From: an uncultured virus (IMG/VR IMGVR_UViG_3300034110_001238)
Lineage: Duplodnaviria; Heunggongvirae; Uroviricota; Caudoviricetes
DNA: 64,000 nucleotides
Virus record (IMG/VR): IMGVR_UViG_3300034110_001238
Direction: 5' to 3' (one strand)
Positions 3,629 to 59,072 of this stretch are shown one piece after another (the stretch's first letter is position 1; the number at the start of each line of letters is the position of its first letter). The position numbers and the translations under genes are program-made. The notes under the pieces are model-generated. The model was not told where the DNA came from and made no database searches. It was given only the letters and a program-made list of their open reading frames with translations.

Positions 3629-3704
3629 TGGTGGAGAAGATGGGATTCGAACCCACGACCTCTTGTATGCCATACAAGCGTTCTACCAACTGAACTACGA
3701 CCCC
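3629..3704 (-). tRNA. tRNA-Ala(GGC)
   Basis: Cloverleaf; anticodon arm CTTGT-ATGGCAT-ACAAG; G3:U70; encoded CCA; two acceptor-stem mismatches. Confidence 0.85.
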
Positions 3705-3713
3705 ATAATAAAG

Positions 3714-3835
3714 TAGAAAGGAATGGATTCGAACCATTACCACTATCACATGGCCTATAAATTACTAGAATTTATCTGACATATGATTTACGTTACCGGG
3801 TCATCCCGGCTGCTCTCCCGTTAAGCTACCTTTCT
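3714..3835 (-). ncRNA. tRNA-like RNA with a non-canonical anticodon loop and a ~55-nt hairpin in the variable-arm position
   Basis: Acceptor AGAAAGG/CCTTTCT, D arm TAGCTTAACGGGAGAGC, T arm AATGG-TTCGAAT-CCATT; no encoded CCA. Confidence 0.7.
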
Positions 3836-3842
3836 ATTAATC

Positions 3843-3917
3843 TGGTGGTTCTGCAAGGAATCGAACCTTAATCATCCCGTTATGAGCGGGGTGCATTTAC
3901 CGTTATGCTACAGAACC
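3843..3917 (-). tRNA. tRNA with CAT anticodon (Met or Ile2)
   Basis: Acceptor GGTTCTG/CAGAACC; loop CT-CAT-AA; CCA. Confidence 0.85.
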
Positions 3918-3934
3918 ATAATTTACATCTAATT

Positions 3935-4011
3935 TGGTGGGACTTGTAAGACTTGAACTTACGACCTGCCGATTATGAGTCGGATGCTCTAACCAACTGA
4001 GCTAAAATCCC
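3935..4011 (-). tRNA. tRNA-Ile2(CAT), lysidine type, reads AUA (Met not excluded)
   Basis: TAGCTCAGTTGGTTAGAGCATCCGACTCATAATCGG..GGTC resembles enterobacterial tRNA-Ile2; CCA. Confidence 0.8.
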
Positions 4012-4082
4012 ATAGTGAATGAATGCCCCCGTAAACCACGGCTTCAATCCAGTCTTACCTTTACAGTAAAACTCCCTTATTC

Positions 4083-4159
4083 TGGCGTCCGTGATAGGAT
4101 TTGAACCTACGACCTTCCGCTTAGGAGGCAGACGCTCTATCCAACTGAGCTACACGGAC
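4083..4159 (-). tRNA. tRNA-Arg(CCT)
   Basis: TCTGC-CTCCTAA-GCGGA; A20 in D loop; GCCA end. Confidence 0.9.
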
Positions 4160-4169
4160 AAAACAAAAC

Positions 4170-4244
4170 TGGTGGACCGTCAGGGACTCGAACCCAGCAC
4201 TCCTGCGTGCAAGGCAGGTATTTTCCCAGCTAAACTAACAGCCC
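4170..4244 (-). tRNA. tRNA-Ala(TGC)
   Basis: CCTGC-CTTGCAC-GCAGG; G3:U70; ACCA. Confidence 0.9.
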
Positions 4245-4441
4245 ATAATAGTATTTCCGCTAACGCTTCAACGATAATAAATATCTCCACGCTTCGAGGT
4301 AACGGTAAATACTTACCGGATATACTTATCAGAAGTCATACTGCAGTGATTAAGCTGCTTCAATCATACGTGACCAGTATACTAGTTGCTAATCAGGCAA
4401 CATGTATCGTTTAAATAAGTTGAATAATCAACTAACTAATT

Positions 4442-4517
4442 TGGCATTCCCAGTAGGACTCGAACCTACAACCGATGACTTAGAAGGTCATTGCTCTTCC
4501 AGTTGAGCTATGAGAAT
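4442..4517 (-). tRNA. tRNA-Arg(TCT)
   Basis: ATGAC-CTTCTAA-GTCAT; GCCA. Confidence 0.9.
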
Positions 4518-4533
4518 ATAAAAAACTATTATT

Positions 4534-4607
4534 TGGTGGAGTCTGAAAGTTTTGACCTTTCATTTACAAGTTGCCTTGTTGTTTTCCGATAGTTAAACTA
4601 AAACCCC
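4534..4607 (-). ncRNA. tRNA-Ala-like RNA with the anticodon loop replaced by a GCAA tetraloop
   Basis: Acceptor GGGGTTT/AGACTCC-ACCA with G3:U70; arm ACAAG-GCAA-CTTGT; T arm GAAAG-GTCAAAA-CTTTC. Confidence 0.75.
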
Positions 4608-4624
4608 TTATAAAACTTTAAAAC

Positions 4625-4701
4625 TGGTGGACACATATGAGATTTGAACTCATGACATCCTGCTTGCAAGGCAGGCGTTCTACCAACTGAACTAATGGCC
4701 C
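4625..4701 (-). tRNA. tRNA-Ala(TGC)
   Basis: CCTGC-CTTGCAA-GCAGG; G3:U70; one-base bulge in acceptor stem. Confidence 0.85.
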
Positions 4702-4716
4702 ATAAAACTTATAAAC

Positions 4717-4791
4717 TGGTGGAGCTATATGGACTCGAACCATATTCTTTAGAAAAAATCCCAAGGTTTTGCCAGTTAAACTAAAAGCCCC
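4717..4791 (-). ncRNA. tRNA-Ala-like RNA with a degenerate U-rich anticodon arm
   Basis: GGGGCT...AGCTCC-ACCA acceptor, intact D and T arms; arm TTGGGATTTTTTCTAA has no 7-nt loop. Confidence 0.7.
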
Positions 4792-4808
4792 ATTGTATTA
4801 CTTAAATC

Positions 4809-4883
4809 TGGTGGACCGACAGAGAATCGAACTCTGAACTCCTGCGTGCAAGGCAAGTGTTTTCCCAGTTAAACTATCAGCCC
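4809..4883 (-). tRNA. tRNA-Ala(TGC)
   Basis: CTTGC-CTTGCAC-GCAGG; G3:U70; ACCA. Confidence 0.9.
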
Positions 4884-4903
4884 ATATCTGGTTACATCTA
4901 ATT

Positions 4904-4980
4904 TGGTGTCTACGGTTGGATTCGAACCAACGACCATCCGCTTAGAAGGCGGATGCTCTATCCAACTGAGCTACGCAGAC
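4904..4980 (-). tRNA. tRNA-Arg(TCT)
   Basis: TCCGC-CTTCTAA-GCGGA; ACCA. Confidence 0.9.
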
Positions 4981-5004
4981 ATATTTCTTTCTATACAACT
5001 AATC

Positions 5005-5079
5005 TGGTGGACCGTCAGAGAATCGAACTCTGAACATCTGCGTGCAAGGCAGGTATTTTCCCAGTTAAACTAACAGCCC
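5005..5079 (-). tRNA. tRNA-Ala(TGC)
   Basis: Near-copy of 4170..4244 and 4809..4883. Confidence 0.9.
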
Positions 5080-5120
5080 ATATTTTAAATTTGATCTAAA
5101 ACAAATCAAGCCAACAAATT

Positions 5121-5198
5121 TGGTGGAGACAAAGAGAATCGAACTCTTCACAGTCTGCGTGCAAGGCAAACTCGCCATCCCTTGGAACATGTGCCCCC
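5121..5198 (-). tRNA. tRNA-Ala(TGC) with an atypical D arm
   Basis: Acceptor GGGGGCA/TGTCTCC; loop CTTGCAC; D region CATGTTCCAAGGGATGGCG. Confidence 0.8.
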
Positions 5199-6951: not shown

Positions 6952-7617
6952 ATGAGCATGACAGTCAACGATTTTCCACCAATTCTCAGCCATTTAGGTA
7001 CACAAGTGGGTAAAAAAGATGAATTAATTTTAGTAATCCCTAAGACAAGTAAGCTTTATTATATATTCACAAAAGAAGAAGACACTTACAAAAATAATAC
7101 TAATCAGTTTATCAATAGTTTAAAATCATTAATAGCTTATGAAGATATTGAAGAACATATCACCAGTATTGAAAAAAATGAAACATCAATTACGGTAATC
7201 ATTAATCTTAAACATATAAAATATCAAACAATCACAGTAGGTGATGACTACAATTCAAAGAACCCATTTGTATTTGAATATACGATTGGACATGGCTATG
7301 TAATCAATATACAAATGATAACCATTCGTTATACACAAGACGATATTGTTGAATTATATCAAGAAACAAAACAGTTAGTCAAAAAATGCAAAGACGCTTT
7401 AATTAGAATTGGCTATACTTCCCATTTTTATTCATCCAAATACAAAAATGATAAAAATATAGTACAAGTTTGGATTCGGCCTGAAAAAATCTCGTGTACA
7501 TTAACGTTATCAATCTATGAAAAATATGTATATAAAAATTATAACAACTTAGACAAACTAATGAAAGAAAATAACCTTGATAAACAATACCAAATACTTG
7601 ACACCATTTTAAAATAG
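6952..7617 (+). CDS. Hypothetical protein, paralog of 7630..8394
   Basis: Shared FPPI/FPMI, VGxKx, IPxTSxL and LDxxY...ILK. Confidence 0.7.
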   Translation: MSMTVNDFPPILSHLGTQVGKKDELILVIPKTSKLYYIFTKEEDTYKNNTNQFINSLKSLIAYEDIEEHITSIEKNETSITVIINLKHIKYQTITVGDDYNSKNPFVFEYTIGHGYVINIQMITIRYTQDDIVELYQETKQLVKKCKDALIRIGYTSHFYSSKYKNDKNIVQVWIRPEKISCTLTLSIYEKYVYKNYNNLDKLMKENNLDKQYQILDTILK

Positions 7618-7629
7618 GAGAAAAATATA

Positions 7630-8394
7630 ATGATAAAAAAAACATTAATAATGCTACTATCAATCTATTCGCTAAATACTTATGCGGATGATAAAAAAAC
7701 AGAAACCCAAAAGACACTTGAAAACTTTCCAATGATTTTTACTCAAATGTCAAAAATGGTTGGCGAAAAAGAAACTGTTGATATCTTTATACCAGACACA
7801 TCCTACTTAATAGATACCTTCTATCCTAAAAAAGAGTTAGAAGATAGTAGTCATCTTGTTGTTAGTTTTGCAAGATTGCGTAGAGGCTTAGGATCAAGCA
7901 CCAGTCCTGATATCGCAAAAAGAATTATCAATACAGTAGATACTGAAAATGGTAAATTGATTACTATTGATCTGAAAGGATTAAAACGACAAACATTCAG
8001 AGTGGTCGCTGATAATTCTTTTAATGATTTTTTTAACGAATATGAATTTGCTGATGGTAAAGTGCTTAAAGCTAAACTGATTTTATCAAAAACTAGTATG
8101 TCTAATGATTTTGAAGAAACAGAGAGAGACTACAAATATTTAGCAAAAAGATATAATACCTTTCTAGATAACCAACATTTTAACAAATCATTATTTAACA
8201 ATGGTCGTATCAATGATAAAGAAAAACTCTATGTATCAACCAGTATCGACAAAGATAAAAATTATGCAATAAACAGTATTACATTGACCATAATGAACAG
8301 TAATATACAGGAAAATTACGATAAAATTATTGAAGATTTAGATGAAAAAGACCTAGATAATAAGTATAAAGAATTAAATGATATTCTAAAATGA
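7630..8394 (+). CDS. Secreted hypothetical protein
   Basis: Signal peptide ending TYA; paralog of the upstream gene. Confidence 0.7.
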   Translation: MIKKTLIMLLSIYSLNTYADDKKTETQKTLENFPMIFTQMSKMVGEKETVDIFIPDTSYLIDTFYPKKELEDSSHLVVSFARLRRGLGSSTSPDIAKRIINTVDTENGKLITIDLKGLKRQTFRVVADNSFNDFFNEYEFADGKVLKAKLILSKTSMSNDFEETERDYKYLAKRYNTFLDNQHFNKSLFNNGRINDKEKLYVSTSIDKDKNYAINSITLTIMNSNIQENYDKIIEDLDEKDLDNKYKELNDILK

Positions 8395-15232: not shown

Positions 15233-15832
15233 TTATTTTAGATTACCAATCAATTTTTCGTTGATAAAGTTATAGGATGTATATAAGTAGTCATCAGCTA
15301 TCTCAAGTTCTAGACCATAATGTTTAGAATCATCGAGTTTGAGTAACAAATCGTTCATTTTTAATTGATATTCTATGGAATCCGTAATTAATAGAAAATC
15401 TTTTTGATTATCAAAAACAGTCTTTAATTGCTCAACCAGCAATTGTGTCTTTTTAGTGTTTTTCTTAAACTTTCGAGTAGTCCTGTAATAGTTAAAAAAT
15501 CTAATGAAAAGTTTTAATGAAATAATTGAAAACACACCACCTACAATAAATATTAAAGCTTTACTTAAATAGTCAAAATTATAGTTATTGATTTGTGGAA
15601 CAACAGGTACAGCTATCTCTTTTTGAACAGGATTAGGCAGTTGCTTTTGATCAATTATTGTTTTTTTCTCTAACAGGTTCTCTAATTTCTTTTCATTGCT
15701 ATGCTCAGCTACAACACGATTAGATTCTACTTGGTTTACCTGCTCTGTCTTTTGTGGCACATATGTTACGACTGATATTGACATCATTAAAACAGTCATA
15801 AGAGAAAATATTATAACAACAAAGAAAATCAT
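15233..15832 (-). CDS. Two-TM membrane protein, paralog family 15233-18123
   Basis: NNYNFDYL motif before TM2. Confidence 0.7.
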   Translation of the reverse strand: MIFFVVIIFSLMTVLMMSISVVTYVPQKTEQVNQVESNRVVAEHSNEKKLENLLEKKTIIDQKQLPNPVQKEIAVPVVPQINNYNFDYLSKALIFIVGGVFSIISLKLFIRFFNYYRTTRKFKKNTKKTQLLVEQLKTVFDNQKDFLLITDSIEYQLKMNDLLLKLDDSKHYGLELEIADDYLYTSYNFINEKLIGNLK

Positions 15833-16839
15833 ATTAATTCACCTTTCAAATTCTTGATTAAATGATCATTTATGAAACTGTTAGTGTCTTTTAATTTCTC
15901 ATTAATCGCTATTAATTCTACTACATTATTATTGCTTGACAAGCGTTCAATGAAGATATTGTTCAATATAATTTGTTCGGATATCAATTGACTGGTTTCC
16001 AACTGATTATTGTTGCTGTTAATTAACATCTTAAATTGAGTCAGCAATGCATTGCTCTTTTTGATTTCTTTTTTAAGTCTACGTGAGCGACCCCAAAATG
16101 AAAGTCCTTTAAACGACAGAAAAGCCGCTAAACACCCCAGTAAGGAATAGCCTAATGTTGTCAATCCTGTATTCAATTGTTCAAAATTATAATTGTTTAC
16201 AATAGATGGAGCCACAACTTTTGATTCTTCTCTTGGAACTACCTTAGCAGGTTCTACTAATGGTTTATTAACAATGACAGCAGTATCTTTACTGATTTGC
16301 TGTCTTAAATCGTGAATATCACTTAAAGCTGAAGCAGAACTAACAGCCCCTGTTTTATGATCAATATAAATAGCATCACTAGCCATATTATAAAACGTTA
16401 TATAAACAGTCACCAATACAATCGAAACCATTAAGATACCTGATACAATAACACGATTTACCATTTCTTCTTTCTGTTTGTAATTGGCTTCGATATTTGC
16501 ATTGTAATAAGTTTTAACTCGTTCAAATCCAGCGATTTCATCATCACTTAAACGGTAGCTAATGTTTTTTGATTTTGAAGATTCTTTTTTACTTCGGCTT
16601 TCATTCTCAAATAAATGATCATAATGTTCTTCACAAGATTCTTCATCTAAACAAGTGTCATCAACAGATTCAAGGAAAACATCCATATCGTAAATGTCAT
16701 TACCGTAATCATATGACTTACCTACGTCATATTCTTCATAGTCAAAGTCAAAATCATTTATTTTGATTCCAATATCGCCTCTTGCTCTGATATCAGCTTG
16801 ACAATATTTATCCAGTTTATATTTTTTATCTTTTTTCAT
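15829..16839 (-). CDS. Two-TM membrane protein with an acidic N-terminus, same family
   Basis: NNYNFEQLNTGL motif. Confidence 0.7.
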   Translation of the reverse strand: MKKDKKYKLDKYCQADIRARGDIGIKINDFDFDYEEYDVGKSYDYGNDIYDMDVFLESVDDTCLDEESCEEHYDHLFENESRSKKESSKSKNISYRLSDDEIAGFERVKTYYNANIEANYKQKEEMVNRVIVSGILMVSIVLVTVYITFYNMASDAIYIDHKTGAVSSASALSDIHDLRQQISKDTAVIVNKPLVEPAKVVPREESKVVAPSIVNNYNFEQLNTGLTTLGYSLLGCLAAFLSFKGLSFWGRSRRLKKEIKKSNALLTQFKMLINSNNNQLETSQLISEQIILNNIFIERLSSNNNVVELIAINEKLKDTNSFINDHLIKNLKGELI

Positions 16840-17555
16840 GAGTCATTACTCATCTCAGCAATAAACATGCGTTCAATAAAACTAAGATTTCTTGACAAAT
16901 GTTCATTATGTATTTTTAACTCTCCAGCATAATAGTTATTACTATATTGCTCAATAATTAGTCTGTTCAAACTTAACTGTTCATTATGTTTTCTACTATA
17001 ATCAAGATAAGTAGTATGATCATTTACATCTTCAGTGAACGATTTCGAAATGAGTTTACTATTTTTTATAGCTTTTTTTATAGTAAGCGTTACTAGCAAT
17101 TTACTAGCTCCTTTAAATGAATAAAAAAGACCAAATATTGTGAGAACAACACTACCCAAATACATAAGTCCTGTATTCAAATCTTCAAAATGATAATGGT
17201 TTTCAGTCTGCTTAATAACAGGTGCTGGTGGTGGCGTTACAACAACAGGCTCTGGAGCTACTGGTTGAATAGGCTCTGTTCTCATTTCAGGATTGACAAC
17301 GGGTGTCAATTTGAAATCTTTGTTTTGTTTAGGCTGTCTTCTATAATCAATAATTTCAGTCACTATTGGCTGTATCCGCTCATATTTAACGACTGGTTTC
17401 ACTTCTTGTTTTACAGCAATGGTTTCTGATTGCTTTGGTGTGTCTGGTTTATTGACGCCCATAGAAGCAAAAATAAAAGTAATAATAAAGAAAAAACTAA
17501 ATAATACCATTATTTCTAATAACGAGAATCCTTTTTGTTTATTTTTTGAAATCAT
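16836..17555 (-). CDS. Membrane protein with a prepilin-type N-terminal cleavage/methylation motif, same family
   Basis: KNKQKG|FSLLEIMV; NHYHFEDLNTGL. Confidence 0.75.
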   Translation of the reverse strand: MISKNKQKGFSLLEIMVLFSFFFIITFIFASMGVNKPDTPKQSETIAVKQEVKPVVKYERIQPIVTEIIDYRRQPKQNKDFKLTPVVNPEMRTEPIQPVAPEPVVVTPPPAPVIKQTENHYHFEDLNTGLMYLGSVVLTIFGLFYSFKGASKLLVTLTIKKAIKNSKLISKSFTEDVNDHTTYLDYSRKHNEQLSLNRLIIEQYSNNYYAGELKIHNEHLSRNLSFIERMFIAEMSNDS

Positions 17556-18123
17556 TTAAAATTTTCCTTTCAATGAAATTATATTGATCCTTCATGATTT
17601 GATTGCTTAAAATTAAACAATTCATCGAAGGGTTTTCTTTATTAAGCTCAATCAGTAGATTATTAAGGCATGTTTGCTCCATAATTTTGTTATTATGTTC
17701 AAGACAATGTTTTACATCATCAATAATCGAATCAAACGCTGAAATAAGGATAATACTTTTCTTCCGAGCGATTGTCAGCATTAATGTTCTGCGGCCAATA
17801 CCAAAACATTTGTAAATAATAAAAACCAGTAAAGCAAAACCACCCAGACCAGCTACGGCCATTAAACCATCGTTTAATTCTTTCAAATCATAGTGCTTTT
17901 CAACAACTACACTAGTAACAGGTGCAGTGTTCACAACATCAACAGGCTTAGCTGGAAGTGTTTTAGTCTCAAGAGAATGCGATTTATTATCCACACAAGT
18001 CCCATGCTCACAATGATGTTCTTGTGCAGCTTTCTCTTTTGATATTTTTTCTATTTGACCAAAACCAATAATTGACACAATGGCTGTAATCATCATAGCT
18101 ATAACCACTTCAAAAAAATACAT
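17539..18123 (-). CDS. Membrane protein, same family
   Basis: Pilin-like MYFFEVVIAMMI; KHYDLKELNDGL. Confidence 0.7.
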   Translation of the reverse strand: MYFFEVVIAMMITAIVSIIGFGQIEKISKEKAAQEHHCEHGTCVDNKSHSLETKTLPAKPVDVVNTAPVTSVVVEKHYDLKELNDGLMAVAGLGGFALLVFIIYKCFGIGRRTLMLTIARKKSIILISAFDSIIDDVKHCLEHNNKIMEQTCLNNLLIELNKENPSMNCLILSNQIMKDQYNFIERKILNDFKK

Positions 18124-18286: not shown

Positions 18287-18315
18287 TTGACTTCTTAAAA
18301 AATAGAGCGTAGAAT
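18287..18315 (+). promoter_or_regulatory. Sigma70 promoter of the Pth2/HD operon
   Basis: TTGACT-17 nt-TAGAAT. Confidence 0.75.
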
Positions 18316-18348
18316 TATAACTGTAAATCAAACAAAGGAGATTACATC

Positions 18349-18810
18349 ATGTTGTAGATTGATAATAACGAATTCGACTTCATCACCAAAGAGGCTATCC
18401 TTAGCCAATACACTCAATTTGTTCCTTCGGACAAAGACTCACATTACTACATCTATTCAATTATTCGCGGCGATTTAAACATGCCAACGGGTAAGCTTGC
18501 TGCTCAAGCTGGTCACGCTTATACGGATGCATTGACAAACGCACAAGAATCGCACCCAGAAAACGTTAAACTTTACAGAAATCGTCAATCGGGCGGATCT
18601 AAGGTTACGTTAAAAGCTAAAAACGAAGATCACTTAATTAAAGCATACAACCAAGCTATTGCTGCGGGATTGCCATGTTCAATTGTTGTCGATCAAGATC
18701 ACATCTTGCCACCACACTTTGATGGTTCACCTATCATTACCGCACTCGGTATTGGTCCTTGCACTAAAGAAGAAGTGAAACAAATCACCAAGAAATTTCA
18801 GTGTGTGTAA
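18349..18810 (+). CDS. pth2: Peptidyl-tRNA hydrolase, Pth2 family, with an in-frame TAG at codon 3
   Basis: YSIIRGDLNMPTGKLAAQAGHA, KVTLK and TALGIGP; AAGGAG SD 8 nt before ATG TTG TAG, in frame with 18481. Confidence 0.85.
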
Positions 18811-18819
18811 GGGGGATTT

Positions 18820-19587
18820 ATGAATAAAGAATTAATATTAACCCTAATTAATGAACACACAATCAAACTGAGTGATTCATCTATTCAACGATTAATCGAG
18901 TTGTCTGAAATTAAAGCCAACTGGGATGGTCGTGATGCTGAACCTATGAATGAAAATTCTTGCAGAGAGATGTTGTATTTTCTTAATAAAATAAGTGACA
19001 GTATCCCTAACGATATCGGGTTCTTCTTCAACCATGAAGGGATGATGAGTATCAACTGGATGTTGAACAATCAGTTAGTAGACGTTTCTTTTGAACCAGA
19101 AGCAACTTATCTATACATGACAGGTTATGATGATGGTATTGCACTCCCTCGATCAGTGTTTAAACATTTCAAATACACCGATCCAGAAAGCTGTTTTGTC
19201 AAGTACAAAACAAAATTAGAAATGGTTTCTGGATTATTATATAAGTTAGAACACGATACAGCGAAAAATTTAGTTGAAAGGATTGCTTATGACTATGGTT
19301 GGGGCGAACATGGAGATGAATTAGAAATTAATACAGATGCCTTACATTCCTTTGTTCATTTTATAGACAACTTAGAGGTATTGCCAGAAAAAATCCTTAT
19401 TTTTCTCACTCATGAAGGGTATTTAGAAGTCGTGCTGATGGATTATGATCCACGTCACGAAATAGAATTTACACCAGAAGGGTTGCTGTTTTTCTTAGCC
19501 CCTGAATATGACATGACTGAAGTCAGTAAAAATAATTTCAACCAATATAAAGATATTAATGATTTTCTAAAAGGAGAAATAAAATGA
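18820..19587 (+). CDS. Hypothetical protein with an internal duplication
   Basis: NWDGRDAEPMN...FFNHEG and GWGEHGDELEIN...FLTHEG. Confidence 0.7.
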   Translation: MNKELILTLINEHTIKLSDSSIQRLIELSEIKANWDGRDAEPMNENSCREMLYFLNKISDSIPNDIGFFFNHEGMMSINWMLNNQLVDVSFEPEATYLYMTGYDDGIALPRSVFKHFKYTDPESCFVKYKTKLEMVSGLLYKLEHDTAKNLVERIAYDYGWGEHGDELEINTDALHSFVHFIDNLEVLPEKILIFLTHEGYLEVVLMDYDPRHEIEFTPEGLLFFLAPEYDMTEVSKNNFNQYKDINDFLKGEIK

Positions 19588-19946
19588 GTAGATTAGCAAT
19601 GATAAACACCATGAAAACATTTTTAAAAACAGAACGTCCCTATCGCGATGATAAAGGACATAAAGTCAAAGTCTTGTTCTTAAAAGACTATATGCTGTAT
19701 GCTTTACTAAGAGAAACAAAAGATTTTACGAAATGTGCAACGGACAAATCGGAAGCTATTTCTATTGCTCTCGACTGGTTAAGTGCTGTCGAAAAATCCA
19801 GAAAACAACTAGAACTTAATAACTTAGAATCTTGGGATTTAAAAGCATTAAAATATAAAATAGGCGTTGACTTTACAGTAGATGATTTGGTACAATTAGA
19901 GCATGCAATAAAGAACCAAATAGAAACATTTAATGCTTCAAAATAA
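19584..19946 (+). CDS. Hypothetical protein
   Basis: AGGAG SD; overlaps the previous stop. Confidence 0.65.
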   Translation: MSRLAMINTMKTFLKTERPYRDDKGHKVKVLFLKDYMLYALLRETKDFTKCATDKSEAISIALDWLSAVEKSRKQLELNNLESWDLKALKYKIGVDFTVDDLVQLEHAIKNQIETFNASK

Positions 19947-19976
19947 CACAATTCATTACTTATTAGGAGAACGACC

Positions 19977-20576
19977 ATGACTATGTAGATTGATAACATT
20001 GAAAACCTTAGCTTCAAAGATCTTGTTAAAGAGATGAAAGCCTGTGAACAAACACAAGGCATGAACGTTCTTCAACATGGATTATCAGTCAATAAATACT
20101 TTCAAGATTTGAAAGATCACATTATTGATGGCAAACCATTAACGCTCGAATGGAGACTTCCTGAGTGGATTTATAACAAATCTATTTGGAATAACTTAGT
20201 AGACGAAAAAGACATAAAAACTTATCAGATTTATCACGACTGTGGTAAACCCTTCTGTTTGACTGTTGATGAAAATGGTAACCGTCACTTCCCTGACCAT
20301 GCACAAGCATCTGGTCTAATCTGGCGTAAAATCGGTGGCACTGAACTTCAAGCTCAATTGATGGAGCATGATATGGACATTCATTTGCTTAAAATGGATG
20401 ATTTTGAAACGTTCTATGCACTACCATTCGCTGCAACCCTTTTGATTACTGGCTTCTGTGAGATTCATAGTAATGCTTCCATGTTTGGTGGTATTGAATC
20501 CACGAGCTTTAAAATCAAATGGAAAAAAATTAACAAAATCGGCAAAAAATTTAATGATAAACTATTAGGAGAATAA
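19977..20576 (+). CDS. HD-domain phosphohydrolase with an in-frame TAG at codon 4
   Basis: QHG, YHDCGKP, HFPDHA and HDMDIH; AGGAGA SD before ATG ACT ATG TAG, in frame with 20034. Confidence 0.8.
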
Positions 20577-52623: not shown

Positions 52624-53199
52624 ATGACACTTGAAGAAAAAATTTTAGACATTCTTAAAAAAGATAAAAAAGATGTGAGAATACCTGAACCTGACAATAA
52701 AACAGATTCAGAGATTTGGCTTTATACTCATAAAGACAAAGATAATTCATTCCAGATTTTTTTTGCAAATTTAACTGATGGAAATATGGCCCATATCAGA
52801 AGAGATGAGGACTCAGAAAATTATGATAAAGTTTTTGAAGCGTCGAATAAGGAATTCTATGATAAAATTATTGAAGTCTATGAAGAAAACATGGCTTTTT
52901 TCAATAAATATAAATCCATTATAAAAAATGATAGAAACGTTCGTATTTATCTAGAAGATCCTTATTTTTACTACAACAAGCGTTCTAAAACATTGTATGC
53001 TATTCCCACAATAAAAGTTAAAACGATTGCTGCGTCATTTTCGTTTTATCTCTATCCAAGTCAACTAAAAAAAATAAATATTGCTGTTGATAAAATTTAC
53101 GAAGATTTTTATCAGCACCTTTTTCAATGCTTTTTACAAAAACCACTGAATAAGTATTCGGAAGAAGAATTGACATTGTTCCATATGATTAAAATTTAA
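52624..53199 (+). CDS. Hypothetical protein, MxxI tail
   Basis: Ends HMIKI. Confidence 0.7.
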   Translation: MTLEEKILDILKKDKKDVRIPEPDNKTDSEIWLYTHKDKDNSFQIFFANLTDGNMAHIRRDEDSENYDKVFEASNKEFYDKIIEVYEENMAFFNKYKSIIKNDRNVRIYLEDPYFYYNKRSKTLYAIPTIKVKTIAASFSFYLYPSQLKKINIAVDKIYEDFYQHLFQCFLQKPLNKYSEEELTLFHMIKI

Positions 53200-53211
53200 G
53201 GATTCTCTAGA

Positions 53212-54000
53212 ATGAAAGAACAAGATATCAAACACATTGAAGCTATTAATGATTTTTTTGGAAAATCTATTCGCTCTGAATACAGCACTGTAAGAAATGA
53301 ACGTGGTGATTACCATGTCATGAATATTTCACCGTTTGACAATAAAATAATTCGTTGTCATTTTAAAAAGTTTGCATATCCTGTAACAATAGCGGAAACA
53401 ATCTATAAGAATAATTGTAGTTTTCATTTAACTAATATGAGCGATGTCGATGTTTCATACATTTTTAGAGACAACGATTATAATTATGATATAGTTGAAA
53501 AAGTTATCAACGCTTTATTTAAGTTAGGTCAAGAATTTAGCTTTTATACTGAAATGTCACCTATTCAAAACATTAAATTGGAAAATAACTTCAACAAGAA
53601 TGGTATTCAAAAGGCTGTAATTGTTCCAACGGTAACAAAATTGACACTTTCATCAATACTAGCGGATAAAAGTGCCAGTGGGATGCCCACAAAGAAAACG
53701 GCAATCGTTCATTTGGCGTTCATGGTTTCAAATGACAATCAACTTCACCCCGTATTAGAATTAGCAATACCCTACTCAGTCTCAAAATTTACTCGATTTT
53801 CAATTCATCTTCACCCATCCAAAAGAGATGAACAAATTAAGCATATTCCTGTTATTTTGAAAGAATTTGAAAATTTACTTATAACACATTTGGATTTTGT
53901 GTTAACCAAATTTTTAAAAATTAAGAAAAATGAATTAGCTACCATGACCTTAGAAGATAAAAAGAACTATCTATCTGTTGTTGAGATGGCTAGAATTTAA
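53212..54000 (+). CDS. Paralog array member 1
   Basis: YNY, GQEF, HPV, PY and TLEDK.NY. Confidence 0.8.
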   Translation: MKEQDIKHIEAINDFFGKSIRSEYSTVRNERGDYHVMNISPFDNKIIRCHFKKFAYPVTIAETIYKNNCSFHLTNMSDVDVSYIFRDNDYNYDIVEKVINALFKLGQEFSFYTEMSPIQNIKLENNFNKNGIQKAVIVPTVTKLTLSSILADKSASGMPTKKTAIVHLAFMVSNDNQLHPVLELAIPYSVSKFTRFSIHLHPSKRDEQIKHIPVILKEFENLLITHLDFVLTKFLKIKKNELATMTLEDKKNYLSVVEMARI

Positions 54001-54084
54001 ATTTAACGATATTAAAGAAGGTGTCAAAAAATGAATGAACCCAATTATAAAATAGCTTTTGATAAACTACTAAGTGGATATTAG

Positions 54085-54888
54085 ATGACAGAGTTCGATA
54101 AAGAAAAAAAATACAAAAAAGCTTTTCATCATTTCTTGGGAAAAATGTTAAATCCTGCTTATACAAGAATTGAGAGTGGGATGACTGATAGTTTAACGCA
54201 TATTTTAAAAAATGATAACTTTCCTAATCGCAAAGCGATTTCGTGTGTTTTCACTCATCATGCTAAATTAGAAAAAGTAGGTGAGACATATTATGATACG
54301 TCCTGCAAGTTTCAGTTTCAAAACATGCCAAGTGATGATTTAACAAAACTATTCAATAACAATACTTATAATTATGAATTAATTCAACAAGTTTTAATGG
54401 AATTTATAAAAATAGGTCAAGAATTTAAATTTTTTACAACATACACACCTATTAACGATTTTAAAATAAGTGACAGTTACAGTAAAGGCGTCTATTATTG
54501 TTCGGAATCTGTAAGAGCATTGACAAAGATAACATTAACCAGTTTGATTGCAGCAAAAACCCTCAATGGTCATGAAAAGAAAAAAACAGTCATTTATCAT
54601 CTTGGATTTAAAGTATCAGTGAATAATAGAATCGAGCCTGTCTTGAGTCTATCTATCCCTTATACAATGAACAAGTCTATGCTGGTTTCAATTAACATTC
54701 ACCCTTCAAAAAAAGAAGAAATGATAAAAACAATACCGTCAATATTAAGTGATTTCAAAATATTGTTAACTGAGCATATCGATATTCTTTTAAATAAATC
54801 GCTAAAACTCAAAAAAGCAGATATACTGAAATTAACCTTAGAAGAAAAAATGAGCTATCTGCCATTAGTAGAGATGGTTAAATTTTAA
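54085..54888 (+). CDS. Paralog array member 2
   Basis: Same motifs. Confidence 0.8.
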   Translation: MTEFDKEKKYKKAFHHFLGKMLNPAYTRIESGMTDSLTHILKNDNFPNRKAISCVFTHHAKLEKVGETYYDTSCKFQFQNMPSDDLTKLFNNNTYNYELIQQVLMEFIKIGQEFKFFTTYTPINDFKISDSYSKGVYYCSESVRALTKITLTSLIAAKTLNGHEKKKTVIYHLGFKVSVNNRIEPVLSLSIPYTMNKSMLVSINIHPSKKEEMIKTIPSILSDFKILLTEHIDILLNKSLKLKKADILKLTLEEKMSYLPLVEMVKF

Positions 54889-54912
54889 AAATTAGGACAA
54901 TAGGATTTAAAC

Positions 54913-55686
54913 ATGAATAAAGAAAATAGGTATAAAGAAGCCTTTAATAAACTGTTAGCGGCAAAAACACCAGAAAATCGTGTTGTTTACAGACAACATG
55001 GGATTCAACATGAGTTAGTGAGTATTAACGATTCAGTTAACTATTATATAAATGCTAGCTTTTATCCGAGTAGGCCAAATAGTCAAGAAATTTATCAAAC
55101 TGACTGCCAAATAAATACACGAGGTGTGCCTTATGATGTATTAAAAGACATTTTTGAATCTCAAAACTACAATTACGAACTAGTTGAAAAAGCCCTACTC
55201 GATTGCTTTGAAATAGGTCAATCATTTAGTTTCTTCAACACGATGCAAGATATCAAAAACATTAAGCTACATGACAGCTTTGATTATAGCTACGATGAGC
55301 CACGTATCACGGTTAAAAATATAAGTAAATTAAACTTAGCCAGTTTTTTGAAACCTAGAAATGATGGTAAACCACTCAACAAGGTTGTCAGTCATAGTGT
55401 TCGTTTTTTTGTAAGCGATGATAATGAAATACATCCTGTTATGTATTTAACAATTCCTTATTGTTCATCATCTAGCTTCACGATAAAAATTTACTTACAT
55501 TCATCTCAAAAAGAAAGTCAATTAAATAATTTAGAGTTGCAAATAAATGACTTTAAAAGACTGTTAGAATACCATTTAGATTTTTTGTTAAACAAAAGAA
55601 TTAAGTTAGCCAAAGATGAAATAGCTCGCCTAACATTAAAAGAAAAATTAAATTATATACCAATATTAGAAATGAACGCATTTTAG
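54913..55686 (+). CDS. Paralog array member 3
   Basis: Same motifs; ends at TAG. Confidence 0.8.
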   Translation: MNKENRYKEAFNKLLAAKTPENRVVYRQHGIQHELVSINDSVNYYINASFYPSRPNSQEIYQTDCQINTRGVPYDVLKDIFESQNYNYELVEKALLDCFEIGQSFSFFNTMQDIKNIKLHDSFDYSYDEPRITVKNISKLNLASFLKPRNDGKPLNKVVSHSVRFFVSDDNEIHPVMYLTIPYCSSSSFTIKIYLHSSQKESQLNNLELQINDFKRLLEYHLDFLLNKRIKLAKDEIARLTLKEKLNYIPILEMNAF

Positions 55687-55740
55687 TTGATTAAAGTTGT
55701 TTTTTTTGATATAATAGACCTCACGATAGAGGTTTATGAA

Positions 55741-56541
55741 ATGGATGAATCAACAATGTACTTGAATGCTTTTAATAAAATGACACAAAATTTAGTGCCT
55801 TCTGAAAATGAAATTGTTTTAACAGAAGGTGATTTTATAATGACTAATATTAAAAGTATCTATAAACATAAAGGAGAAAATACTAGCACTAGCTTACAAT
55901 ATAACTTTTATCGCTCGAATAGAGCCAAGATTCATGGACACTCATATCCATATATGTGTGAAATAATTGGTAATGATATTAAAGAAGACGTATTAAAAGA
56001 GTTTTTTAATGCTCAAAATTATAATTATCAAGCTATTCATGATACCGTTAAAGCCCTTTTTGAAATTGGTCAAAAGTTTGGCTTCTACAAAGAAATTACC
56101 GACTTAAAACATACAAAAATTGAAGAATTATACACACCTGTAAGAAAAGTTTCCAAAAGTGAGCAAAAACATTTAACAAAAATAACATTTTCTCCCATGA
56201 TGACTGAAAAACGATCAGCCGATAACTTGAAAAAGAAAGTAGCAAAAATTCATAACAACTTTTATCTTTATCAAAATAATGAGATTCAACCTATAGTCAG
56301 TATATCGTTGCCATATAGCTCATCCTACGATTTCTTGGTGAAACTAAATTTACATCCATCACAAGAAGCGGCTCAAAAAGAACATCTAGAACAGGAAAAG
56401 ATTCGTTTTTCGAAGGTCTTAGAAGAACATTTTGAAAGTGTTTTGAAAAGAAAACTTAAAATGAAAAAAGAAGATATTGCGGCCATGACTTTAGAAGAAA
56501 AATTAAATTATCTCATTGTTATAGACATGAACACAATTTGA
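55741..56541 (+). CDS. Paralog array member 4
   Basis: Same motifs; GAGG SD before MDEST. Confidence 0.8.
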   Translation: MDESTMYLNAFNKMTQNLVPSENEIVLTEGDFIMTNIKSIYKHKGENTSTSLQYNFYRSNRAKIHGHSYPYMCEIIGNDIKEDVLKEFFNAQNYNYQAIHDTVKALFEIGQKFGFYKEITDLKHTKIEELYTPVRKVSKSEQKHLTKITFSPMMTEKRSADNLKKKVAKIHNNFYLYQNNEIQPIVSISLPYSSSYDFLVKLNLHPSQEAAQKEHLEQEKIRFSKVLEEHFESVLKRKLKMKKEDIAAMTLEEKLNYLIVIDMNTI

Positions 56542-56577
56542 ATATAATCAAAAAATAAAATACTACTGGAGATATTA

Positions 56578-57396
56578 ATGAGCGAAGAACAAAACAATCT
56601 TATTCAAGTCTGTAAAGACTTTTTTAAAGATCAAGAAATTGATCAAATCAATACAGGTGAAAGCAACCATTATTTTAACAATGCTTTCATCGTAGATATA
56701 AAAGAATCTTCATCTAAGGTAATATTTAGATTTAAGGGTAAAGTTGGATATCCAAATAAATGTGTAGATTATGAAAAAGAGTGTGTTATTGGATTCGAAA
56801 ACATGAACAAAAAAACAGTAAGTGAACTCTTAGGTCCACAACAATATAATTATGCATTCATTGAAAAAGCTATAAAACATTTATATACACTGGGTGAAAA
56901 CTATAAGCTATTTAAAACGTTAAAGCCAGTTAAAAACCTTAGAATTGAACAAACCTTAGTATCAAGAGATTTGTGGACACATTACGAAAACACGCAATTT
57001 GCCAGCACACAAAATATTTCAAATATACAATTCTCAAATTTCTATAAGACTGAATTGCATAAACTAGAAAGAGGTGCAAAAAAATTGAAAGGTAAAAATA
57101 TGACCTTATGCTATCATTTTGTTGTAAGAAACAATGAACTTCATCCAATAGCAATAATTGATTATCCTGTAGCACCAAATGCCAGTATAGAACTCGCATT
57201 TGATATCCACCCTGCTCAGCAACAAGAAGCTGAAGAAAGATTGATCAAATACTCATCTGAACTAAAAGAAAGATTGATTAAACGAGTCAATCAGGTCTTA
57301 AAAAAAGAATTGCAATTTACTAATAAAACATTAGTAACGCTAACAACAGAAGATAAAATTAACTATTTGACAGTTGCTGAAATGTCGGAAATATGA
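56578..57396 (+). CDS. Paralog array member 5
   Basis: Same motifs. Confidence 0.8.
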   Translation: MSEEQNNLIQVCKDFFKDQEIDQINTGESNHYFNNAFIVDIKESSSKVIFRFKGKVGYPNKCVDYEKECVIGFENMNKKTVSELLGPQQYNYAFIEKAIKHLYTLGENYKLFKTLKPVKNLRIEQTLVSRDLWTHYENTQFASTQNISNIQFSNFYKTELHKLERGAKKLKGKNMTLCYHFVVRNNELHPIAIIDYPVAPNASIELAFDIHPAQQQEAEERLIKYSSELKERLIKRVNQVLKKELQFTNKTLVTLTTEDKINYLTVAEMSEI

Positions 57397-57426
57397 TACT
57401 GTTACTGTTAAATTATGGAGCCTTAC

Positions 57427-58272
57427 ATGAATGAAAGTCAAATAACCTGCTTAGACGCCTATTTAAAACTTTTTGAAGGAACCGCTTTTGATAAGCCTTC
57501 GTTTTACGAAGCAAACTCTAGCACAAGCACGGGTGTCGTTGGGGTTATTAAATCAAGAAATAAAGCAGTTAAGCAAAAAGAAATTGATGAAGAAAACGAA
57601 GAAATATATATGGCGTTTAGTTATAATACTGGTTATCGACAAGAAAAAGATGATTTTCAGTATAATGCTTTTTTACAGTTTTCAAATCTCAACAAGAAAT
57701 TTGTAAGTTCGCTGTTTAGTCAAGTTAATTATAATTATGAAATTGTGAATAAAGTCATCAATGATTGTTTCTTAATGGGGCAACAACATGCTTTATTTGA
57801 ATCACTTGAAACAATTAAAGATCCTGCCATTCATCATTACTTCAAAAAAGCGTATCAATTTAAAGGTATATCTCGAAAACTTATTTCAACTGAAACCAAG
57901 ATATCCGAAGTTAATTTTGCCGATTTTTTCAAAACTAAAAACAACACCAAAAATGGTAAGTTAAGAAGTCGAAGAATTACAATAGACTATAAATTTGGTA
58001 TCAGTAATGGTGTTATTCACCCACTGGCAGAAATAACATTTCCCATTTCTATCAGTGACAAAATGCTCATTACCGTTGATATTCATCCAGATGGTCAAGC
58101 GTTTAATGAACGACAACTCGAAAAAACAATGTCTAAGTTAAATATCGTATTAAAAGAAAGAGTTGATATGATTTTAAGAAAAGAATTAAAATTAAAAAAT
58201 AAATATTTATCAACGTTAACTTTTGAAGATAAATTGAATTACTTGAAAGTTGCTGAAATGTCCATGATTTAA
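57427..58272 (+). CDS. Paralog array member 6
   Basis: Same motifs. Confidence 0.8.
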   Translation: MNESQITCLDAYLKLFEGTAFDKPSFYEANSSTSTGVVGVIKSRNKAVKQKEIDEENEEIYMAFSYNTGYRQEKDDFQYNAFLQFSNLNKKFVSSLFSQVNYNYEIVNKVINDCFLMGQQHALFESLETIKDPAIHHYFKKAYQFKGISRKLISTETKISEVNFADFFKTKNNTKNGKLRSRRITIDYKFGISNGVIHPLAEITFPISISDKMLITVDIHPDGQAFNERQLEKTMSKLNIVLKERVDMILRKELKLKNKYLSTLTFEDKLNYLKVAEMSMI

Positions 58273-58283
58273 TCGGAGTATCT

Positions 58284-59072
58284 ATGATCAATGCAGATGT
58301 GGTATTAGCAGCCTATCATGAGATGTTTGATAATACATCCTTTGAAAAGTATTTAAGTCCCAAAGACAAGTATTCCATTTATGAAGTTGTAGGCATTGAT
58401 GAAACAGTTAAATACAATACCAGTACCGTAGCCTGTGTGTTTGCTAAACCTCAACGATTGATTCCCAATATGTTGTATGAATATCATTGTTCGATGAAAT
58501 TTAGATATGTAGAAAATGAAACCATTGATCAGTTATTTGGAAATAAAAACTATGACTATACTTATGTCAGTAATGTTTTTAATGAGTTCAATATTATTGG
58601 CGAACGTTATGGATTTGTCAAAAAAATTGAAATAAAAGATTATTCAGTAGAAGGACAATTTAAAAGTATATTGATTGAAAAAAATAGCTCATTCAAACCG
58701 GCTGGTGTCGTTACTCTTTCAAATGCATTGGTTCAATTCGATCCAGATTATAAAAAAATGGTGTATGCTTGTACAATCAATATCGAGTTGACATTCATAG
58801 TTAAGAATAACAAATTACAGCCAGTATTGATAGTTTCCTATCCTGTATCTGCAAAAAAACGTTACTACCTATATTTAAACATTCATCAGGATAACAAATG
58901 CAATCAAAAAATAGAATTGTTAGAATTTAAAAATGGTTATGAAGTCAAAGTTAAAGAACATATGGATGTTTTACTAAAAAATAATTTTAAAATGACAGTG
59001 GCTGATTTAAAACAACTAACGATGGACGATAAAATAGACTACATGAAAATTATTGAAATGGGCACTATTTAA
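58284..59072 (+). CDS. Paralog array member 7
   Basis: Same motifs. Confidence 0.8.
   Translation: MINADVVLAAYHEMFDNTSFEKYLSPKDKYSIYEVVGIDETVKYNTSTVACVFAKPQRLIPNMLYEYHCSMKFRYVENETIDQLFGNKNYDYTYVSNVFNEFNIIGERYGFVKKIEIKDYSVEGQFKSILIEKNSSFKPAGVVTLSNALVQFDPDYKKMVYACTINIELTFIVKNNKLQPVLIVSYPVSAKKRYYLYLNIHQDNKCNQKIELLEFKNGYEVKVKEHMDVLLKNNFKMTVADLKQLTMDDKIDYMKIIEMGTI

Follow-up and report, generated by a model that had tools for sequence, protein, structure and literature searches.

An early in-frame stop in a phage Pth2 gene, probably opened by a phage-encoded suppressor tRNA

The gated Pth2 gene

The subject of this article is a small gene in the DNA of an uncultured tailed virus (Caudoviricetes; IMG/VR record IMGVR_UViG_3300034110_001238). 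The stretch analysed comprises 64,000 nucleotides (nt) and is here called the window; all coordinates refer to this whole stretch. The gene encodes a predicted peptidyl-tRNA hydrolase of the Pth2 type, and its third codon is an amber stop, which we consider to be a gate that is probably opened by a suppressor tRNA of the phage itself. The window has a GC content of 31.7% and codes densely under the standard code. Its genes include types familiar from jumbo phages: a protease-like ATPase, a Sir2 protein, a DprA-like protein, a YqeY/tRNA amidotransferase-like protein, a dCMP deaminase and a tRNA array.

The elements of the gated gene all lie on the plus strand. A sigma-70-like promoter (TTGACT, 17 nt, TAGAAT; 18287-18315) precedes it, which is a consensus match only, with 10 of 12 positions agreeing. 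A Shine-Dalgarno sequence, AAGGAG (18335-18340), is separated by 8 nt from ATG 18349, which with TTG 18352 makes up a leader of two codons (18349-18354). Then comes the gate, an in-frame TAG (18355-18357) with a purine, A, as the next base, and the sequence goes on with ATT 18358, GAT and AAT. The stretch from 18358 to 18450 encodes an apparently translated N-terminal extension (IDNNEFDFITKEAILSQYTQFVPSDKDSHYY), homologous by tblastn up to residue 1 in the Agrobacterium phage Atu_ph07. The Pth2 domain (PF01981) with its terminal stop occupies 18451-18810. Beyond the TAG the zero frame is open up to the TAA at 18808-18810 and includes ATG 18481, which is internal to the domain. The gate is thereby confirmed as an observation; the arrangement given in the preliminary description, AAGGAG, 8 nt, ATG TTG TAG ATT and a frame leading into the open reading frame (ORF) with ATG 18481, matches the sequence exactly.

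ATG 18481 is the first in-frame ATG, GTG or TTG after the TAG and lies 41 codons on. Translated from ATT, residues 32-148 of the product match positions 3-113 of the PTH2 profile (E 4.4e-24, 85.4 bits against a cut-off of 23), and residues 34-146 match residues 5-111 of a solved Pth2 structure, 2zv3 (E 3.4e-16). By these matches the ORF is a member of the PTH2 family (Pfam PF01981), and peptidyl-tRNA hydrolysis is its predicted activity. If translation is taken to start at ATG 18481, the profile match begins only at position 13. The methionine of 18481 aligns with the internal methionine of a conserved stretch, 'DLxMxxGK' in 2zv3, so a start there would remove strand 1. The full PTH2 domain, comprising the first strand and the R-x-D-L motif, requires translation past the TAG. 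The frame scan, the profile and 2zv3 together bear out the earlier claim that the skipped part encodes the first beta strand and is devoid of in-frame ATG, GTG and TTG.

The distance of 8 nt is well suited to ATG 18349. By established spacing rules, the 17 nt between the Shine-Dalgarno sequence and ATT 18358 are too long for direct initiation there. A ribosomal hop from TTG 18352 to TTG 18359 was also considered and discarded; the frame in which it would land closes at 18478. That the Pth2 site is no product of chance was seen when the window was scanned, with loose settings, for a Shine-Dalgarno sequence, a start, up to 10 codons, a stop and at least 90 open codons. The scan returned four rows. 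Two of them are the Pth2 site, counted from ATG 18349 and from TTG 18352, and one is a site at 19977 that is discussed below; the fourth is a GTG/TAA case with an ordinary start two codons past the stop.

Is the TAG real? An IMG/VR contig of 181 kb (L001) that shares 99% protein identity has an identical ATG TTG TAG ATT behind a different upstream region; when 24 bases of the window gate were used as an exact pattern to search IMG/VR, this same relative was the only hit. Contigs from four public sequencing runs of four studies differ from the window at many flanking positions, and no difference is listed between 18276 and 18399, where the comparison covers the best-supported differences only and rare variants may escape. 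One public run contains 99% of the words sampled from the window, and three others contain longer contigs. A megablast of the Pth2 region against the phages in GenBank gave no match. The check for sequencing error that the preliminary description had proposed thus comes out in favour of the TAG; judged from L001 and the contigs of the four studies, the gate is not an error.

The 41-codon stretch from the gate to ATG 18481 (18358-18480) points in the same direction. Its alignment with L089, the closest relative that is distinct (70% identity), comprises 37 codons: 10 are unchanged, 11 have synonymous and 16 non-synonymous changes. By this codon pattern, the leader is a translated sequence under purifying selection.

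The gate in related phages

A profile-guided scan of IMG/VR yielded 67 Pth2 loci, 28 of them gated and 39 ungated with a normal start. These numbers count loci, not independent events: L090 is almost the same as L091, L088 corresponds to the L001 contig and L100 to Atu_ph07. Among the ungated are five loci (L121, L138, L142, L144 and L146) that an automatic rule had flagged; they have a normal start between stop and domain, most without a Shine-Dalgarno sequence. In 23 gated loci, ATG is followed by one to seven codons and a stop. In three (L108, L110 and L111) a second in-frame stop stands a few codons from the first, and two (L093 and L103) need a +1 shift at TAG.

The closest relatives of the window gene are all gated, and a distant 'KQVIVVRKDLNMRKGK' clade is ungated. 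The early stop is retained across lineages of 26-70% protein identity. The preliminary description had considered that homologs might have a sense codon here; the close ones retain a stop, which disposes of this objection. On this comparison, the early gate is a conserved design of the Pth2 family.

The surroundings of the stop are also of interest. Altogether 34 gates were collected, and in 33 of them a purine follows the stop (A in 19, G in 14; C in one). Classical studies on nonsense suppression identified a purine on the 3' side as the context in which suppression by a tRNA is favoured over release. The codon after the stop is ATT in 10 gates, GAA in five and GTT in four; GAT, ACT, AAC, GTG and ATC occur twice each, and CTG, GCT, AAA, ACC and ATA once each. 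Promoter-like hexamers precede the gate also in L089, L092, Atu_ph07, L095 and L098.

A further element was noted at one gated locus. About 0.9 kb downstream of its Pth2 gene and directly after two tRNAs, L134 contains a GOLLD RNA (L134:2719-3176; Rfam RF02032, 161.5 bits).

Suppressor tRNAs at the gated loci

A tRNA with the anticodon cognate to the gate stop was found for 24 of the 28 gated loci, usually within a few kb and without a single mismatch: TAG goes with CTA, TGA with TCA and TAA with TTA. Twelve TAG-gated genes have the CTA tRNA within 1.5 kb, upstream and on the same strand, and at L110, the sole locus with a TAA gate, a tRNA with the anticodon TTA adjoins the gene. Among the 39 ungated loci, none has a suppressor within 1.5 kb. 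The first scan also yielded L002, an ungated Pth2-like locus next to a tRNA array that includes a CTA tRNA.

For nine further gates the nearest tRNA had been predicted beforehand, and it proved to be cognate in all nine. A CTA tRNA is nearest to the gates of L094, L095 (two copies), L098, L099, L101, L107 and L154, and a TCA tRNA to the TGA gates of L096 and L097, where the L096 contig contains only two tRNA hits in 290 kb. L100, that is Atu_ph07, combines a TGA gate with a TCA tRNA. As read from these loci, the stop of the gate and the anticodon of a suppressor tRNA nearby vary together, and they do so for all three stop codons.

Promoter-like hexamers are also seen before the suppressor tRNA in L090, L092, L103, L105 and L106; L092 has the same hexamers in front of gene and tRNA. 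A search with Rfam in 16 loci revealed neither a ribozyme nor another element next to the suppressor tRNAs. An attempt to deduce the amino acid identity of the suppressors from paralogous tRNAs gave best identities of only 0.66-0.79, pointing to differing tRNA types.

The two loci that need a frame shift deserve a separate look. In L103 (the contig behind G016; L103:1273-1346 and L103:1476-1490), the leader ATG TTG TAG is one base out of the Pth2 frame, which a four-base step, TAG-A, restores. Its CUA tRNA, which is counted among the 24 cognate suppressors, lies about 130 nt upstream of the leader ATG and, in the Infernal alignment, has one base inserted between positions 32 and 33, so that the loop, CcUCUAAU, has eight bases. 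This pair could be a case of natural quadruplet or +1 decoding, seen in a single contig. A search for independent copies of such a +1 gate with an expanded-loop tRNA returned the same contig only from IMG/VR, and four unrelated chance matches from one metagenome. In L093 (the contig behind G012; L093:1429-1470) the leader reads ATG AAC ACA GCT ATG CAG TAG, and a +1 step (TAG-G) leads into the Pth2 frame; the sole tRNA of this 41-kb fragment is Arg(CCT)-like, with G at position 33 and the loop CGCCTAA. ARAGORN reports tRNAs with expanded anticodon loops near gated Pth2 genes also at L095:1944-2020 and L106:2874-2953 (ggaa and gcaa, respectively).

A second gated gene

The site at 19977 is the second gate of the window and lies 1.6 kb downstream of the first, again on the plus strand. 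Between them are two ORFs of unknown function (18820-19587 and 19584-19946) without a family match. A promoter-like sequence, TTGACT-18-TACAAT (19867-19896), again a consensus match only, precedes the gate, which consists of AGGAG, 7 nt and ATG ACT ATG TAG (19965-19988; ATG at 19977) and shares TAGATTGATAA with the Pth2 gate. It continues with ATT GAT AAC (to 19994), in frame with an ORF annotated from 20034.

The 195 codons after this gate (19989-20576) encode a protein of phrog_14850 with a helical fold of the HD type and the conserved residues H...HD...H...D; its nearest folds are HD-type domains that bind tRNA. In sequence searches, no Pfam family, HD (PF01966) included, was matched at E values up to 0.1, a PDB sequence search gave nothing significant, and in the nearest named cluster of the ESM Atlas only 15% of the members are annotated as HD.

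In L089, L090 and L092 this HD-fold gene follows Pth2 directly with coupled starts, and the two ORFs of 18820-19946 are absent from this place. In the phages RsoM2USA, XacN1 and Xoo-sp13 and in LR745206 it is gated separately. Tenacibaculum phage pT24 has both genes fused: a 314-codon ORF (L190:2632-3585) contains the Pth2-like and the HD-fold part behind the gate ATG AAA TAG, with the stop at codon 3; the record annotates the fusion only from an internal ATG. A tRNA-Sup lies 2.5 kb upstream. In Cronobacter phage GAP32 the HD-fold gene (L189:2986-3552) has a normal start and an internal TAG (GAC ACT GGA TAG GGC), with a CTA tRNA 2.3 kb away, and the record splits the gene into small ORFs. In relatives of GAP32 (CBB, BF, fHe-Yen9 and the Erwinia SNUABM phages), two or three ORFs lie under the HD-fold match.

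Cultured phages

The pairing of stop and anticodon is not confined to uncultured viruses; it is also found in Atu_ph07, Phosso, RsoM2USA, XacN1, Xoo-sp13, ME3, Arash, pT24 and GAP32. In Atu_ph07, homology extends by tblastn 32 codons upstream of the annotated start, and ATG ATT GGC GAA CAC TTT TGA ATT is in frame with the gene. Sinorhizobium phage Phosso has ATG AAG TAT TAG GTT and, according to ARAGORN, two CTA tRNAs, one of them 4.6 kb upstream of Pth2. Ralstonia phage RsoM2USA repeats the window most closely, with AAGGAG, 7 nt and ATG TTG TAG ATT, including 12 bases, ATGTTGTAGATT, that are the same as in the window. Its gate precedes a divergent, unannotated Pth2-like ORF, and TAG stands on two genes, with one CTA tRNA in the phage. 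A scan of the whole RsoM2USA genome (344 kb) for start-proximal gates revealed convincing ones in the Pth2-like and HD-fold families only. Xoo-sp13 has an ungated Pth2, a CTA tRNA and a gated HD-fold gene. Munch and A4, two cultured phages with an ungated Pth2, have no suppressor among their 12 and 6 tRNAs, respectively.

In the record of Salmonella phage Arash, the tRNA at L191:3991-4065 is called tRNA-Phe; ARAGORN assigns it the anticodon CTA. Its position is some 1 kb downstream from a gated Pth2-like gene (ATG CTG TAG), of which only 50 codons are annotated.

ARAGORN finds the TCA tRNA in Atu_ph07 and the CTA tRNA in RsoM2USA. These tRNAs were in part already known. As far as the accessible text of the genome reports goes, a UCA suppressor tRNA is described for Atu_ph07 (PMC6102473), a CUA suppressor tRNA for RsoM2USA (PMC8504454) and a CUA 'tRNA-Pyl' for a Sinorhizobium jumbo phage; for XacN1 two CUA tRNAs are mentioned whose suppressor targets were, according to the authors, not identifiable (PMC5852040), and for phiKp24 a suppressor tRNA whose target could not be named (PMC8386662). 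The gated genes fare worse in annotation. They are called too short in Atu_ph07, Phosso, Xoo-sp13, XacN1, ME3 and Arash, split in GAP32 and missed in RsoM2USA.

Proposed mechanism

Taken together, we regard it as probable that the Pth2 gene of the window is a stop-gated gene opened by a phage-encoded suppressor tRNA. Ribosomes would start at ATG 18349 on the strong Shine-Dalgarno sequence, read TTG and meet UAG. A CUA suppressor tRNA encoded by the phage would insert an amino acid there, and a full-length, foldable Pth2 would result; without this tRNA only fMet-Leu would be released. The HD-fold gene would be opened in the same tRNA-dependent way. That read-through by the phage tRNA actually occurs is what we infer from the sequences.

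The tRNA would act here as a trans-acting translational activator, and two enzymes of tRNA 3'-ends would be made only after a phage tRNA has been expressed, processed and charged. Such a device may be called an AND gate or a feed-forward timer: the mRNA would be present at once, the protein only after the tRNA. The frequent presence of separate host-type promoter-like sites on gated gene and tRNA fits an AND gate. With the stop at codons 2-8, failed attempts would be cheap and the inserted residue would fall into a tolerant leader. It is an attractive idea that the level of the enzymes is in this way tied to the strength of suppression and that they help to clear the side effects of suppression, i.e., read-through, stalled ribosomes and dropped peptidyl-tRNA.

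More tentatively, and with considerable doubt on our part, one may go a step further. Suppressor tRNA, Pth2 and HD-fold hydrolase might form a self-contained and portable translational circuit of large phages, in which the tRNA is the dedicated activator and the enzymes either clean up the damage caused by suppression or act on the suppressor tRNA itself as a homeostat. Codon and anticodon would be private to such a circuit and could, in consequence, drift together, as the amber, opal and ochre versions suggest; L103 might be a four-base version.

Several facts weigh against a tRNA-opened gate, the most serious being that the tRNA is missing where we would like to see it. A tRNA with the anticodon CTA is absent from the 12 tRNAs of the window and from the 27 tRNA hits of the 181-kb relative (G001), which CheckV estimates to be 58% complete. 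The search for such a tRNA suggested in the preliminary description was accordingly negative, its reach being the window and this one relative. Four of the 28 gated loci lack a recognised suppressor, all of them on incomplete contigs (9-58%). The gated loci are mutually related, so that the 28 do not count as independent. Finally, ATT follows the stop in 10 of the 34 gates, which is more than the mechanism explains. The lack of a CTA tRNA in the window and in the partial relative has lowered our confidence to the level expressed above. The CTA tRNA of this phage is predicted to reside elsewhere in its genome.

The CTA tRNA of L089 precedes the ATG of the gate by about 930 nt; the same place in the window is taken by divergently transcribed ORFs. 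These are three adjacent ORFs on the minus strand (15829-18123; 336, 239 and 194 amino acids), situated where relatives have their suppressor tRNA. They share a motif, F/L-E-x-L-N-x-G-L, and a hydrophobic stretch, and look like tandem paralogs of a membrane protein. A tRNA at 4717-4791 containing TTCTAAA was inspected as a hidden amber tRNA and rejected; ARAGORN makes of it a poor tRNA of the Lys(TTT) type, and folding by free energy does not give a cloverleaf. It belongs to the region of the tRNA array of the window (3629-5196, minus strand), which comprises six Ala(TGC)-type tRNAs, two Arg(TCT), Arg(CCT), Ala(GGC), two Met and one degenerate Lys-like tRNA. G001 has, at 77.6-79.5 kb, about 13 Leu-type tRNAs with five anticodons, one Gln tRNA and one with a four-base anticodon (cgct). 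Such arrays of near-copies with varied anticodons are unusual.

Alternative explanations

The preliminary description had itself placed the gate near known feedback loops and had named two triggers, failure of termination by release factor 1 (RF1) and the appearance of a suppressor tRNA. The second is strongly favoured by the co-variation of stop and anticodon; the first receives no support. A loop of this kind would use the mini-ORF like a lambda bar minigene or the early stop of prfB: read-through would rise when RF1 fails or peptidyl-tRNA builds up, and Pth2 would regulate itself without any dedicated tRNA. The anatomy, a Shine-Dalgarno sequence followed by ATG, one to seven codons and a stop, is indeed that of a minigene, the product is predicted to hydrolyse peptidyl-tRNA, and the missing CTA tRNA in the window and its partial relative speaks for such a loop. 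A loop that works without a tRNA does not, however, predict that the type of stop tracks the suppressor anticodon, as it does in the 24 loci and in cultured phages. Moreover, the HD-fold gene, which does not encode a Pth, shares the gate; Pth2 is not a protein that reads stops; and the window has no slippery site and needs no frameshift. The earlier framing as autoregulation of the prfB or bar type is therefore not upheld, and we consider it improbable as the main device. Feedback could modulate a tRNA-dependent gate.

Still less likely is termination followed by reinitiation, in which the mini-ORF would be finished and translation restarted at the near-cognate ATT 18358 without read-through. 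ATT is a rare start codon in bacteria, with infC as the example, and both window gates are among the 10 with ATT directly after the stop. Nineteen of the 34 gates, however, have codons unusable as starts in this position (GAA, GTT, GAT, ACT, AAC, CTG, GCT, AAA or ACC), two in-frame stops would have to be overcome in L108, L110 and L111, and the co-variation with the suppressor anticodon would be left unexplained. Initiation at ATT 18358, an option that the preliminary description had kept in view, is made unlikely by GAA, GTT, ACT, AAC, GAT and similar codons after the stop in relatives, and by the two-stop loci.

There is little to recommend the idea of a broken gene, in which the TAG would be a nonsense mutation or a sequencing error and either no protein or a truncated one from ATG 18481 would be made. 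In its favour, annotators chose internal ATGs in Atu_ph07, Phosso, Xoo-sp13 and XacN1, and the Pth2-like gene of RsoM2USA was left unannotated. A decaying gene would hardly present the same gate in the strains of four studies and in L001, keep its early stop down to 26% protein identity or show the above selection on its leader codons. A start at ATG 18481 would also cost strand 1 and the R-x-D motif, and RsoM2USA, L098-L101 and others have no internal start at all before strand 1.

Equally remote is a general change of the code, with TAG read as an amino acid throughout the genome or in a block of late genes (code 15 type): phage suppressor tRNAs are, as far as the accessible literature tells, best known from recoded phages, but code 11 gives 61.4 kb of ORFs of at least 100 amino acids in the 64 kb of the window, 10 of 107 ORFs of at least 80 amino acids end in TAG, so that TAG is a genuine stop elsewhere as had been claimed, the only two in-frame TAGs with coding support stand at codons 3-4, and RsoM2USA has just two convincing start-proximal gates in 344 kb, internal stops being outside that scan.

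Two places in the window may be mentioned in passing. At 6952-8394 and at 54913-56541 one of the few genes that end in TAG is succeeded by another gene in the same frame (TAG GAG AAA AAT ATA ATG and TAG TTG ATT, respectively). An active amber suppressor would fuse the proteins concerned; chance is a possible cause of the arrangement, at one in three for each. A series of seven tandem ORFs (52624-59072, plus strand; 191-285 amino acids) without a PHROG match looks like a paralogous family.

Significance and comparison with known systems

If the tRNA-opened gate exists, the orphan suppressor tRNAs of standard-code jumbo phages would gain conserved targets, i.e., the Pth2 or Pth2-like genes and the HD-fold genes, and there would be a natural example of a tRNA that works as a gene-specific translational switch. 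The gate may also show an early step toward the reassignment of a stop codon. In practical terms, it corrects the annotation of genes that were called short, split or missed. The question is directly testable in cultured pairs of phage and host and with simple reporters.

The gate resembles several known systems without being identical to any of them. In prfB, the gene of release factor 2, an early in-frame stop in a gene for a translation factor likewise decides whether the full protein is made. There, however, the decision is a +1 frameshift on CUU UGA C, by which the gene senses its own product, whereas the Pth2 gene of the window needs no shift, and it appears to be a tRNA that decides. 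The bar minigenes of lambda consist of a strong start, one to a few codons and a stop, are linked to peptidyl-tRNA hydrolase and act by sequestration of tRNA, with a drop-off of peptidyl-tRNA that becomes toxic when Pth runs short. The window offers the same sequence of Shine-Dalgarno element, ATG, short run and stop, and the link to a Pth as well, but bar minigenes stand alone, while the mini-ORF of the window abuts a conserved coding sequence and is in frame with it.

The closest natural parallel is the recoding of stops in phages. In crAss-like, Lak and other gut phages, TAG or TGA is read as an amino acid by means of phage suppressor tRNAs (bioRxiv 10.1101/2021.08.26.457843, PMC7886860, PMC9523058, PMC13037316). 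There, too, stops within the frame of phage genes are decoded by a phage tRNA whose anticodon reads them, and, in the accessible parts of these reports, a role in the timing of expression is proposed. The phages with a gated Pth2, in contrast, keep the standard code, end genes with TAG and are affected in no more than one or two small genes; in almost every case the stop is found at codons 2-8 behind its own Shine-Dalgarno sequence and ATG, the tRNA is usually adjacent, and all three stops are matched.

An engineered counterpart has been built in E. coli. In the feed-forward 'leak dampener', an amber-containing target and a co-expressed suppressor tRNA form an AND gate (PMC7969014, as far as its accessible text describes it). 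This system is synthetic; the gate of the phages would be its natural and widely conserved counterpart.

As to the orphan suppressor tRNAs of XacN1, Atu_ph07, RsoM2USA and phiKp24 (PMC5852040, PMC6102473, PMC8504454, PMC8386662), we are dealing with the same tRNAs, with CUA, UCA or UUA as anticodons. Where these papers discuss them in their accessible portions, read-through is sought at the ends of genes or the purpose is left open, and start-proximal gates go unmentioned there. A search of the accessible literature, with supplements outside its scope, retrieved no description of a start-proximal gate in Pth2 or HD-fold genes. What is new, then, is that phages which keep to the standard code elsewhere in their genomes apparently reserve a tRNA for one or two genes gated at the start.

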